Made by a program: the position numbers
DNA from: a virus
Taxonomy: Duplodnaviria; Heunggongvirae; Uroviricota; Caudoviricetes
IMG/VR virus record: IMGVR_UViG_2551306674_000013
DNA length: 19,629 bases
Direction: 5' to 3' (one strand)
Shown: positions 9,001 to 12,000 of the stretch, piece by piece
How positions within the stretch are numbered: the first letter of the stretch is position 1
Layout: each line of letters begins with the position of its first letter

Positions 9001-12000
9001 TCCTGCGAGACGGCGATGCATTTGCTGGCGGCGGAGTGGCAAGCGCTGACGATTTCGACGATATCAGCGAAGGTACTGATGCTGAAGCACTGATTTAATC
9101 CTGCTTCACAGACGCCCGGTTAAACGCCGGGTGTTTTTGCAAAGGGGAATATGCCCGGAGCTACCTGTATTGTTCTGGTTAGCACCCAGTCGCCCTGCTA
9201 CCCCGATATTGACTCATCGCCCCCTTCCGGTTTATGCTCACCGAATCTCCCAAATGGAGATCGGGATTTGCAACCCGGAATTGTTAGGGGCGACACCAGA
9301 CGCGCAGCGTCTTTTTTATTGTCGCAAGCTTTGCCACGTTCGCATTATGGCGGGCTGGCGGGGGCGCTTCGGCGCGCCGGTTTCCTCTAACGCCGGTATT
9401 GCAAACCTCGTCAGTTCGCCACCCATATGAGATTTGCAACTCAGTGGTGGCGGTGAATTTCACCGTTAGAGGTAACTGTGATGGCAACTCAACTCATCCC
9501 CGTTTTCAACGGCGCTATCGCCAACGAAACCACCCTGCTCTGCAATGCTCGCGATCTGCACGCATTCCTTGGGGTAGGGAAAGTGTTTGCAGCGTGGATT
9601 ACATCACGAATTGCAGACTATGAATTCGTTGAAAATCAGGATTATATCGTAACGTTTTCCAAAACTGGAAAGCGTAAAAATGTTCTTTGTAAGGACTACC
9701 ACCTCACTCTCGATACAGCCAAAGAACTGGCGATGGTGGAGCGCAACGAAAAAGGCCGCCAGATCCGCCGATACTTCATCGAGTGCGAACGCAAACTGCA
9801 CCAGCAATCCTCCACGATACTGGCGCCACACAGGGAGTGTCTGCCGAAGATGGTTTACCATCACCGGAGCAAATACAACCCGTACAGAGCTTACGCATGG
9901 GACGGAGAGAAAAGCGTTTACGTCGGGTGCTATCCGACTGTGGATGAGGCTGTCGCTGCTCAGGAACGCTTCTACCGGAACGGCAGCACGAAACGCATTC
10001 AGAAGGCGCAGACAGCAGTCAGTGACGCAGAGAAGGAGATGTTCATCAACAATCTCCGCGCCGTCTGTCATAACTTCCGGCGCATCAATGAAATCTGGCG
10101 GGCGCAGTTAATGCCTGCTCTCGAAAAAATGGATTCGAAACTGGTTTACCAGTTGCATGACCGCTTCAGCGACAGCATGTGCATTCTGCCGACCATAGAA
10201 GACCGCATCGGCAGATATATCCCACCCACTTTACCTCGTTAATCCTTCAGTTCGCCCCTGCTCAGCCAGGGGCTTTTTATCACCGTTTAATTTACGGAGG
10301 ACTTCGTTTTGTCTGAAAACACTGATTTAAAAAAGCAAAGTATCAGACCTGTAATATCATTTGGCCTGATACTTACTTGCATCTATTTTCAATAATTGGG
10401 AATTATACTTCTTTATAACGCCTCGTCCCGGAAAAAGAAACCAAAACATAAAAGCCATCCATATACACAGCAACATTAAAACAGCGCCCATTCCTATAAA
10501 AACAGCGCCATAATTTAACGACCAACAGAAAAATATCAAGCCATCAGCCAAATAAAAGATAGAAACAACTTTAGAACACCAGCGACATCGTTTGTATTTA
10601 CCTTTGTAGCGTATAAAGAATCTATCGTATTTACACTGAATATGGGGTGCTAAATAACCCCACTGCCAAAACGGCATTTTCAATTCAGAATACGTTCTGA
10701 CATAAATAACTAACGTTCTTAATTTCTGGCTACTTATACCTAATATACTTTTTTTAACTTCTCTTTTGATTTCTGCCTTCATAAACTCTACATCAGAAGG
10801 CTCAATATGCTCCGGATAATTCTTCAGAATATGCGAGAATTTTGTTGTTTTCGGTAAAAACCAACTAGCATCTTTAAATAACTTATAAACACCGACTGGT
10901 GCAGTTATGGCTGAAATTATGACTCCAACAAGTGAGATAATATCTTTCGTATCCATGTAGCTAATTCTTCGGAGTAAATACAATGTCCAATATACTATGG
11001 GGCGACCTGGAAACTTTCTGTGAAATACCTATCAATAATGGCACCCATGCGTATGCCGAAGGCGTTGAAGTGATGCTTTTCGCATGGGCTATCAACGACG
11101 GGCCAGTAAACGTGTGGGATATCACTGCCGGTGGTGGTATTCCACACGGCTTATACGAAGCAATCGCAGACCCTGAAACCCTGCTTTATTTCCATAACTC
11201 TCACTTCGACCGCACCGTTCTGCGTTATGCAATACCGCGACTGGCACCGCCAGTCGAACGTTGGCGCGACACGATGGTGCAGGCGCTGGCGCACGGTCTC
11301 CCGGGGTCTCTGGGGGAACTCTGCGAAGTACTAGGCGTCCCGCAAGACAAAGCGAAGGACAAAGAAGGTAAAGCGCTGATCCAGCTGTTCTGTAAGCCAC
11401 GCCCGAAAAACAGCAAACTGCGCCGGGCCACCAGCAAAACCCACCCGGAAGAATGGCGGCGCTTTGTTGCTTACGCCGGACTGGATATCGAGGCAATGCG
11501 CGAAGTCTATAAACGTCTGCCGAAGTGGAATTATCAGGGGACAGAACTGGCGCTCTGGCATCGTGATCAGCAGATCAATGACCGGGGCGTCTGCATGGAC
11601 GTGGAACTCGCACGCGCTGCGATCGACGCGGTAGACCAGGAACAAAAGCGCCTGGCAAAGCGTACACAGGAAATGACTGATGGCGAAGTGCAGGCAGCCA
11701 CACAACGAGACGCGTTGATTAAGCACATTGTTGAATCCTACGGTGTGGAGCTACCAGACATGCAACGCAGTACTCTGGAACGTCGTATTGCCGACCCCGA
11801 TTTACCATCTGCCGTGAAAGAACTGCTGGCTATCCGCCTGCAGGCCAGTACTACCAGCACCAGTAAATACAAGGCACTGATGAAAGGCGTAAGCCACGAC
11901 GGGCGCTTACGCGGTACGCTACAGTTCTGCGGGGCGTCACGTACCGGTCGTTGGGCCGGACGGCTATTCCAGCCCCAGAACCTTCCCCGCCCTTCACTAA

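Follow-up and report, generated by a model that had tools for sequence, protein, structure and literature searches.

A probable moron encoding a three-helix inner-membrane protein in a variable slot beside the DNA polymerase gene of an Escherichia coli prophage, with a possible anti-phage role

The locus and its minus-strand gene

We analysed a stretch of 19,629 nucleotides from a tailed-phage genome of the class Caudoviricetes (IMG/VR record IMGVR_UViG_2551306674_000013; the whole stretch is called the window below), and in particular a gene for a small membrane protein that lies on the minus strand between the genes for an AntA/AntB-type antirepressor and a family-A DNA polymerase. This region is 99.9–100% identical to prophages of seven complete Escherichia coli genomes, including STEC435 (NZ_CP129348.1), STEC1590 and 89-3156, and the STEC435 prophage carries stx2b and adjoins yfhL. 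The plus-strand neighbours of the gene form an early replication and recombination operon, encoding a DUF2800 nuclease, a DUF2815/Enc34-type single-stranded DNA-binding protein (hereafter DUF2815), the polymerase, a VRR-NUC protein and an SNF2 helicase, which terminates at the integrase gene. The membrane protein itself is entered in RefSeq as a 'hypothetical protein' (WP_000379840.1).

Base composition is not uniform across the window. The block at 10281–10982 has a G+C content of 0.345, compared with 0.492 for the rest, and in a 700-bp sliding calculation (mean 0.489, standard deviation 0.042) the minimum (0.341, starting at position 10301, about 3.5 standard deviations below the mean) falls on the stretch that holds the membrane-protein gene. 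The open reading frame (ORF) has a G+C content of 0.345 overall and of 0.33 at third codon positions (0.40–0.61 in the surroundings). A preliminary description of this DNA had recognized a block of some 700 bp at about one-third G+C, which these figures bear out, but had put the surrounding operon at about 60% G+C, whereas the flanking genes lie at 46–55% and the window mean is 49%. The sole long ORF of the block runs on the minus strand from an ATG (10357–10956, 199 codons), as described at that stage, and its start is indeed divergent from, and 26 bp away from, the polymerase ATG at 10983. An in-frame TTG at 10983, upstream in the reading frame of the membrane protein, is not the start because the homologues are all 199 amino acids long with the same first methionine; M1 is invariant among them, and the ATG is the conserved start. 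The compositional deviation recurs in all 11 homologous copies examined (0.31–0.40, vs 0.42–0.55 in their flanks).

A conserved gene with its own history

A search of 5.8 billion clustered proteins returned 13 clusters, from Enterobacteriaceae wherever a source was named. Twelve of these are exactly 199 amino acids long, at identities from 98% down to 51%, and the remaining one is a fragment of 110 amino acids. The alignment of 13 sequences (the 12 full-length clusters and the window protein) contains 62 invariant columns, and pairwise ratios of nonsynonymous to synonymous substitution rates (dN/dS) between the window gene and four other copies range from 0.13 to 0.32, with dS reaching about 2. 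The membrane-protein gene is real and under purifying selection. AT-rich DNA is poor in stop codons in some frames, and the Shine–Dalgarno sequence in the window is weak (GAAGAA), so that a chance ORF within non-coding DNA had to be considered; the homologues nevertheless have a good Shine–Dalgarno sequence, a deeper alignment gives a confident fold model, and the constant length and start codon, the invariant columns and the low dN/dS at high dS refute this reading, to which we attach practically no weight.

Two E. coli alleles of the gene, the window type and the type of locus L002 (strain 07_3722), share 69% amino-acid and 80% nucleotide identity. Between them dS is 0.58 in the cassette (the AT-rich block with its gene and terminator), which exceeds the values of its flanks (0.09 in the polymerase gene and 0.20 in DUF2815), so that the cassette has been exchanged and did not merely evolve in place.

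In strain 07_3722 and several viral contigs DUF2815 is immediately followed by the cassette. The window instead has a separate module between the junctions, made up of a C4 RNA gene, an AntA-type antirepressor gene and the terminator at 10254 (the c4-ant module). A relic of the DUF2815 3′ end adjoins the cassette terminator, and the left junction, after the true DUF2815 stop codon, retains the empty-site hairpin and TGTTTTTGCAAAG. Because the cassette of the relatives abuts DUF2815 and the window keeps the relic, the c4-ant module appears to be the added piece, and the simplest reading is that it joined a cassette already present. The preliminary description had the cassette inserted between the antirepressor and polymerase genes; the order of events was thus probably the reverse, the c4-ant module looking like the later arrival. 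A C4 RNA just upstream of ant is the arrangement of the immI module of phages P1 and P7. Two mechanically called ORFs of 79 and 99 amino acids may be spurious, because the GC-rich stretch 9131–9430 holds an RNA gene. A short plus-strand ORF (10296–10392, about 28 codons by hand count), in which GGAGGA is followed 8 nt later by TTG, covers the DUF2815 relic and runs antisense to the 3′ end and terminator of the membrane-protein gene; it is probably meaningless.

A hypervariable slot between DUF2815 and the polymerase gene

We surveyed 80 viral contigs encoding a DUF2815 protein at least 92% identical to that of the window and located the polymerase start in each; including loci obtained earlier, the slot from the DUF2815 stop to the polymerase start was measurable in 79 related loci plus the window. 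Slot length ranges from 75 to 2557 bp, and the polymerase is 84–100% identical in all but one locus (70%). In 12 loci the slot is empty (75–81 bp, about 60% G+C) and comprises, besides the ribosome-binding site of the polymerase gene, a CCCGGC..GCCGGG hairpin and TGTTTTGCAAAG..GCAAAG. Filled slots hold at least eleven unrelated cargo types. On the minus strand these are the 199-amino-acid membrane-protein family (13 loci), a 209-amino-acid relative of it (10 loci), an unrelated membrane-anchored protein of 166–174 amino acids (nine loci), a 229-amino-acid protein (six loci), a protein of 60–67 amino acids (four loci) and a DUF4145 protein (one locus); on the plus strand they are Nmad5 (21 loci), an AntA antirepressor (nine loci), a 493-amino-acid SIR2_2 protein matching the defence candidate PDC-S25 at E = 4e-157 (six loci), a Band_7/SPFH lipoprotein (four loci) and a NUMOD4-HNH endonuclease (one locus). 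This range of cargo, defence-like, counter-defence-like, regulatory and selfish, marks the hotspot as a general one. The membrane-protein gene had been proposed to be a moron, that is, self-contained, compositionally deviant and antisense; with relatives that share its flanks either empty or otherwise filled, and with purifying selection on the gene itself, we regard its status as a moron or cargo gene as very probable.

Several features of the other occupants are worth recording. The SIR2_2 cargo (e.g. L012, 5661–7142, plus strand, and five similar loci) lies in slots with a G+C content of 0.34 and has a weaker match to ThsA. The genes for the 166–174-amino-acid proteins (L054, 5565–6065, minus strand; L070, L073 and similar loci) are also AT-rich and encode an N-terminal membrane anchor, with no database match; kinship with the membrane-protein family was rejected at an hhalign probability of 0.75%. 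The element of the empty slot (L075, 5537–5635; L055; window 9099–9143), in which the CCCGGC..GCCGGG hairpin is followed by TGTTTTGCAAAG..TTTTCGCAAAGCACCCGCGAGGA, occurs on both sides of plus-strand cargo (e.g. L045, L065 and L068), and the window retains only the left copy; it may be both a terminator and a recombination site for cargo exchange. The literature on DUF2815 and DUF2800 does not treat the slot between DUF2815 and the polymerase gene.

Protein architecture

Hydropathy places three membrane helices at residues ~5–25, 130–147 and 152–176, and the gene encodes a three-helix inner-membrane protein. Residues 24–130 contain 23 lysines and arginines vs nine aspartates and glutamates, and the tail (177–199) six vs one; under the positive-inside rule this charge distribution gives a topology with the N-terminus outside, the C-terminus inside, and a cytoplasmic middle domain and tail. 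Of the whole chain, only some four residues at the N-terminus and a loop of similar length are predicted to reach the periplasm. The preliminary description was right in recognizing a membrane protein, but it had placed predicted transmembrane (TM) helices at the two ends; the count is three, with two of them forming a hairpin.

An AlphaFold2 model built from a 27-sequence alignment that includes distant members (mean predicted local distance difference test score, pLDDT, 82.5; predicted template-modelling score, pTM, 0.62) was used here, and a model from the 13 close homologues alone (pLDDT 54.6) was discarded. The retained model consists of a helix at residues 3–29, four short helices at 36–105, a β-hairpin at 106–115 that includes the FFIRY motif, helices at 120–146 and 151–174 and a short helix at 178–188. 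P176 does not vary across the family, F113, R125 and N185 are near-invariant, and these four residues map to the cytoplasmic membrane interface; conservation peaks in the β-hairpin-plus-basic segment and in the tail and is lowest in TM2, the loop and TM3. The middle of the protein had also been described as basic and cysteine-containing. It is basic, as the charge count shows, but the cysteines of CKYDRF..CRWC are replaced by tyrosine or other residues in relatives, so that this is not a metal-binding motif, and a cysteine/zinc motif was rejected.

Family members and their genomic contexts

An exhaustive profile search of 1.84 billion representatives (E < 1e-3) found only 21 proteins, mostly full-length matches of 190–240 amino acids; among them are four fragments (51–114 amino acids) and one spurious 755-amino-acid repeat protein, which was set aside. 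A profile scan of genome contigs with the family alignment added one locus, in Enterobacter cloacae and in a different context, and tblastn against plasmids gave a single weak Pantoea match. No paper in the literature mentions WP_000379840 or phage 606R2.

The 209-amino-acid slot occupant belongs to phrog_10579, a family of unknown function, and is represented for example by URC08724.1 of phage vB_EcoM-606R2. Like the membrane-protein gene, its gene is AT-rich and antisense in the same slot, and the architecture is similar, with one helix, a cytoplasmic domain and a two-helix hairpin; identity, on the other hand, is only ~18–22% and pairwise BLASTP is marginal (E = 0.007). The membrane protein matches phrog_10579 at E = 7e-4 (residues 38–192 to profile positions 21–179 of 182), and in reverse the family profile retrieves two proteins of the phrog_10579 type (P0031 and P0032) at E = 2.5e-4 to 4.3e-4 with a coherent alignment. 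Because the matches are found in both directions, the 199- and 209-amino-acid slot occupants are remote homologues.

Other members occupy the same slot in the same orientation in other prophages (P0017, P0019 and P0024 at 20–30% identity; P0012 at 51%). One member (P0016, 30% identity) is encoded in a P4-like satellite, where it adjoins psu and lies between cII and psu, with int outside the examined locus. This position falls within the interval of the psu–int hotspot of P4-like elements, which Rousset et al. (2022; PMC9122126) showed experimentally to be an anti-phage reservoir. P0021 and P0022 are encoded just downstream of umuDC-like genes, the latter also next to a 1273-amino-acid SIR2_2 protein, its contig further carrying a gene for a conjugative coupling protein, and P0027 is encoded near an OLD-like ATPase and umuDC. 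The genes for P0033, P0020 and P0023 stand alone on plasmid-like contigs that encode partition proteins (ParA/ParB) and/or replication initiators (Rep3, IncFII RepA), one of them adjoining a patatin-iHKD protein. Members were found only on mobile elements and, given that these contexts are prophages, a P4-like satellite and plasmid-like or integrative-element-like contigs and that every copy examined is AT-rich relative to its flanks, the family is mobile-element cargo, often with defence genes nearby.

The distant members downstream of or near umuD/umuC-like genes include those at L088 (1844–2473), L089 (1962–2591), L085 (7001–7618) and L098 (7001–7621). In the first two a gap of only 45 bp on the same strand follows the umuDC-like genes, a spacing that points to co-transcription and possibly to SOS control. 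The family adjoins a DNA polymerase gene in the phages, too, as it does umuC-type genes elsewhere, perhaps by coincidence.

Transcription signals

Two terminators had been proposed around the block, and both are supported. The plus-strand one, which closes the c4-ant module (z = −3.2), was called by a terminator scan as well as by folding of its stem at 10254–10273. On the minus strand a hairpin at 10333–10378 is followed by UUUGCUUUUUU (folding energy −19 kcal/mol, z = −3.0); the simple scan missed it because its loop is 13 nt long, and its stem is preserved in the 80%-identical L002 allele (GTATCAGGTC/GACCTGATAC).

The 26-bp spacer between the divergent genes is too short for two promoters. 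A candidate −10 box for the minus-strand gene, TAGTATATT, sits 35 nt upstream of its ATG and is the reverse complement of polymerase codons 3–5. The isoleucine–leucine pair of the polymerase is encoded by ATA-CTA, two codons that E. coli seldom uses, in 38 of 38 loci with an abutting minus-strand gene of type C1, C2, C4 or C7, whereas loci with this pair but no such gene use ATT-CTC, except for seven apparent deletion derivatives and one other. The P4-satellite homologue, which has no adjoining polymerase gene, is likewise preceded by a CATAGTAT box at a distance of 34 nt. We infer from this pattern that the box is a shared weak −10 element serving whichever minus-strand cargo is present. The second minus-strand family (L054, L070, L073 and similar loci) shares the same TAGTAT box in polymerase codons 4–5.

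It had further been argued that the polymerase promoter must lie within the cassette. This is not supported: a consensus scan found no plus-strand promoter-like site inside it, and read-through from upstream is an equally possible source of polymerase transcription.

Comparison with known families and systems

The membrane protein matches 0 families in Pfam and 0 in NCBIfam, and its best match in PADLOC-DB v2 (RTasSLATT, E = 0.049) is not significant. A family-profile sequence search of PDB returned only noise (Poz1, E = 0.12), and structure searches gave nothing significant in BFVD (best E = 0.5) or, with Foldseek, in PDB (best E = 2.6). A search by profiles and structure had been put forward as a check; it produced the remote match to phrog_10579, but no link to a characterized family. 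When all 23 members were scanned singly, scattered weak matches to hydrophobic families appeared (DUF2207_C in seven, DUF4231 in two and a '2TM' effector in one). No annotated superinfection-exclusion or holin family was matched in Pfam or PHROGs, where phrog_10579 was the only match; a holin PHROG was matched by the 606R2 protein alone (E = 0.37).

The topology recalls the stators MotA, TolQ, ExbB and ZorA, which also combine an outside N-terminus, a first helix, a helical cytoplasmic domain of ~100 amino acids, a TM2–TM3 hairpin and a cytoplasmic tail. TolQ, ExbB and ZorA chains provide 10 of the top 50 Foldseek matches in PDB, with full-length alignments that are non-significant (E ≥ 2.6, TM-score 0.21–0.28). 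MotA_ExbB is absent among the Pfam matches listed for the members, and homology to TolQ/ExbB was rejected at hhalign probabilities of 0.2% (E. coli TolQ) and 0.5% (TolQ plus ExbB alignment). Stators moreover have a partner of the TolR/ExbD/MotB type, whereas the membrane-protein gene is solitary, with no such neighbour in the window or in relatives; we treat the stator likeness as one of topology only. A two-helix hairpin with flanking helices is likewise found in the SLATT/DUF4231 effector domains, which are associated with defence islands. The matches in this direction (RTasSLATT as above; DUF4231 in 2 of 23 members, E = 0.024, below the gathering score; a CBASS-type '2TM' domain in 1 of 23, E = 0.0015) are weak and inconsistent across members, no SLATT family is among the Pfam matches listed, and, in contrast to SLATT/2TM systems, no nucleotide-signalling partner lies consistently beside the gene. 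This lead was rejected, the matches probably reflecting hydrophobic composition.

Small helical inner-membrane proteins that act against other phages are familiar from phages and prophages, including RexB of lambda, SieB of lambda and P22, SieA of P22 and Imm of T4. None shows a sequence relationship to the membrane protein, for which there is no annotated PHROG or Pfam match at E ≤ 1. RexB requires its partner RexA, whereas the membrane-protein gene is solitary, and none of the four is known to have a topology in which helices 1 and 2 are separated by a large basic cytoplasmic domain.

The hotspots described in PMC9122126 resemble the DUF2815–polymerase slot in being fixed sites between conserved genes with interchangeable, often AT-rich cargo in either orientation, and transmembrane proteins are present in several of their validated systems. 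The slot differs in phage lineage and site and in including clearly non-defence modules, and the membrane protein is not among the systems seen in that study.

Possible function

Our best explanation of the whole, to which we give slightly less than even weight, is that the gene is a moron in the DUF2815–polymerase slot of an Stx2b-type E. coli prophage and encodes a membrane-acting anti-phage protein. An anti-phage role as such, judged from genomic context, seems to us evenly balanced. The defence-linked contexts are the SIR2/PDC-S25 cargo in the same slot (six loci), the satellite copy in the psu–int hotspot, and the members encoded beside SIR2_2, patatin and OLD-like ATPase proteins. Antisense to the early replication operon, the gene probably uses its own weak promoter in polymerase codons 3–5, with transcription ending at its own terminator, and a lysogen, with its early operon repressed, could then produce the protein. 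At the inner membrane the protein would act to shield the cell or element that carries it from other phages, its conserved cytoplasmic, membrane-proximal face sensing a cue and its variable TM2–TM3 hairpin perturbing the membrane; alternatively, it might block DNA entry. A mode resembling abortive infection is favoured by the cytoplasmic location of the conserved surface and by how little of the protein reaches the periplasm, and we propose this specific mode only tentatively.

Several points weigh against this explanation. The protein matches no PADLOC, Pfam, NCBIfam or annotated PHROG family. Its candidate promoter has no recognizable −35 element, the box was not called by the consensus scan, and the codon association might stem from linkage between the cassettes and the first ~15 nt of the polymerase gene instead of promoter selection. 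Position in the slot does not by itself imply defence, because Ant, Nmad5 and a homing endonuclease also occupy it, and persistence in one slot across 20–30% identity could mean a role tied to the replication module.

The protein might instead exclude superinfecting phages, blocking genome entry of incoming or related phages at the inner membrane without killing the cell. A small prophage inner-membrane protein whose gene opposes the lytic early operon and has a terminator of its own would suit such a role, which shares the hotspot and mobile-element context, and specificity-driven diversification predicts deeply divergent alleles at a fixed position like those found here. However, the predicted topology leaves almost nothing in the periplasm beyond the N-terminal end and a short variable loop (about four residues each), the residues conserved family-wide are all on the cytoplasmic side, and no annotated exclusion family was matched in PHROGs or Pfam; we therefore consider exclusion rather improbable. 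Equally modest weight goes to some other benefit to element or host, as an addiction- or toxin-like protein, a bacteriocin immunity protein, a modulator of envelope stress or lysis timing, or an anti-defence factor. Solitary members near plasmid partition and replication genes, members directly downstream of and co-oriented with umuDC-like genes, and the many non-defence cargoes of the slot would all be compatible with such a benefit, and the sequence identifies no function; but no antitoxin or bacteriocin neighbour recurs (Pyocin_S is nearby in one context only), the gene is distant from the lysis genes, and the occurrence in the P4 psu–int interval favours defence.

A replication accessory intrinsic to the phage, anchoring the replisome or replicating DNA at the membrane in the manner of the phi29 membrane protein p16.7, would account for the exact position beside the polymerase gene that homologues keep at 20–30% identity, for the strongly basic cytoplasmic domain and for the members beside umuC-type polymerase genes. 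Against this, 12 relatives have an empty slot and most others unrelated cargo while the polymerase stays 84–100% identical (70% in one); its gene is foreign in composition and antisense, and the P4-like satellite and plasmid members have no polymerase gene nearby, which together make an anchor very improbable. We find it just as hard to credit that the protein is the membrane effector of a two-gene system, opened by a signal from the TIR-like PDC-S35 protein encoded after the polymerase gene. The window, phage 606R2 and the loci of two distant homologues do have a TIR-like gene after the polymerase gene, and TIR genes occur in 10 of 22 loci with a family member vs 11 of 53 without one, counts that are not phylogenetically independent. 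Systems pairing a TIR protein with a transmembrane protein are known in P2 hotspots (PMC9122126). Against this, 12 of the 22 family-bearing loci have no TIR gene, TIR genes also accompany empty slots or other cargo, the two genes lie 2 kb apart on opposite strands, and the satellite and plasmid copies have no TIR neighbour. With such weak enrichment an obligate two-gene system was rejected, and because each gene occurs without the other the two are separate modules.

Returning to the anti-phage explanation, a fuller version of it would make the protein a new single-gene membrane anti-phage system of prophages, P4-like satellites and plasmids, in which a single protein would both detect infection through its conserved basic cytoplasmic face and either collapse the membrane or prevent DNA entry. 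Separately from this, the DUF2815–polymerase junction would be an undescribed cargo and defence hotspot with an outward promoter in synonymous codons of the polymerase gene. We consider this reading unlikely. Still more speculatively, the protein could act alone as a mimic of the ExbB/TolQ topology and disturb phage entry that depends on Ton or Tol. No source of new anti-phage systems has so far been richer than the hotspots of prophages and satellites, and the slot is a clean, easily searched one in a lineage that includes Shiga-toxin (Stx2b) prophages. The gene is short and stand-alone and belongs to a very small mobile-element family without annotation. If the −10 box within the polymerase codons is real, the synonymous codons of one gene carry the promoter of an interchangeable neighbour. 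If the gene should have no phenotype, it would be an ordinary hypothetical moron; it is an uncharacterized gene of a known kind of feature and not surprising in itself.

Feature coordinates and neighbouring genes

Table 1. Features of the slot and its flanks, with positions in the window.
Feature	Position	Strand	Remarks
DUF2815/Enc34-type single-stranded DNA-binding protein gene	8550–9098	+	Conserved left flank
Whole variable slot	9099–10982		DUF2815 stop to polymerase start; two cargo modules here
C4 antisense RNA gene	9343–9426	+	Rfam RF01695, 70.6 bits, E = 3e-12
AntA/AntB-type antirepressor gene	9481–10242	+	Pfam AntA, E = 1e-24; RefSeq annotation
Intrinsic terminator closing the c4-ant module	10254–10280	+	Stem 10254–10273, then TTTTTAT; −18.1 kcal/mol, z = −3.2
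Relic of DUF2815 3′ end	10313–10331	+	18 nt, CTGAAAACACTGATTTAA; adjoins cassette terminator; older DUF2815–cassette junction
Intrinsic terminator of the minus-strand gene	10329–10378	−	Hairpin and U-run; stop codon in loop
Membrane-protein coding sequence, 199 amino acids	10357–10956	−	Stop codon 10357–10359; 13 homologue clusters; dN/dS 0.13–0.32
Basic tail with short helix, codons 177–199	10360–10428	−	Predicted cytoplasmic; N185 near-invariant
TM2–TM3 hairpin, codons 130–176	10429–10569	−	~4-residue loop; sequence variable; segment ends at invariant P176
Basic helical domain and β-hairpin (FFIRY), codons 26–129	10570–10881	−	Predicted cytoplasmic; best-conserved part; near-invariant F113, R125
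TM helix 1, codons 5–25	10882–10944	−	N-terminus predicted outside; hydropathy up to 2.1 over 19 residues; model helix 3–29
Divergent spacer, 26 bp	10957–10982		Polymerase ribosome-binding site (GGAG) on plus strand and leader of minus-strand gene
Family-A DNA polymerase gene	10983–13046	+	Conserved right flank
Candidate −10 box TAGTATATT for the minus-strand gene	10989–10997	−	Formed by polymerase codons 3–5 (AAT ATA CTA); putative promoter role

Directly after the polymerase gene, at 13111–13872 on the plus strand, the window encodes a 253-amino-acid protein that matches PDC-S35 (PADLOC, E = 7e-109) as well as TIR effector models. The homologous position is annotated as CAP12-PCTIR_TIR in related loci and holds a second Ant in STEC435 and an ANR regulator in 07_3722; because its occupants vary, it is a second cargo slot of the same operon. 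Further upstream, between a gene for a 300-amino-acid protein and the DUF2800 gene, a 172-amino-acid ORF (6722–7240, plus strand) corresponds to a NUMOD4 domain protein in STEC435. It is absent from that position in phage 606R2 and strain 07_3722 and is probably a homing-endonuclease insertion.

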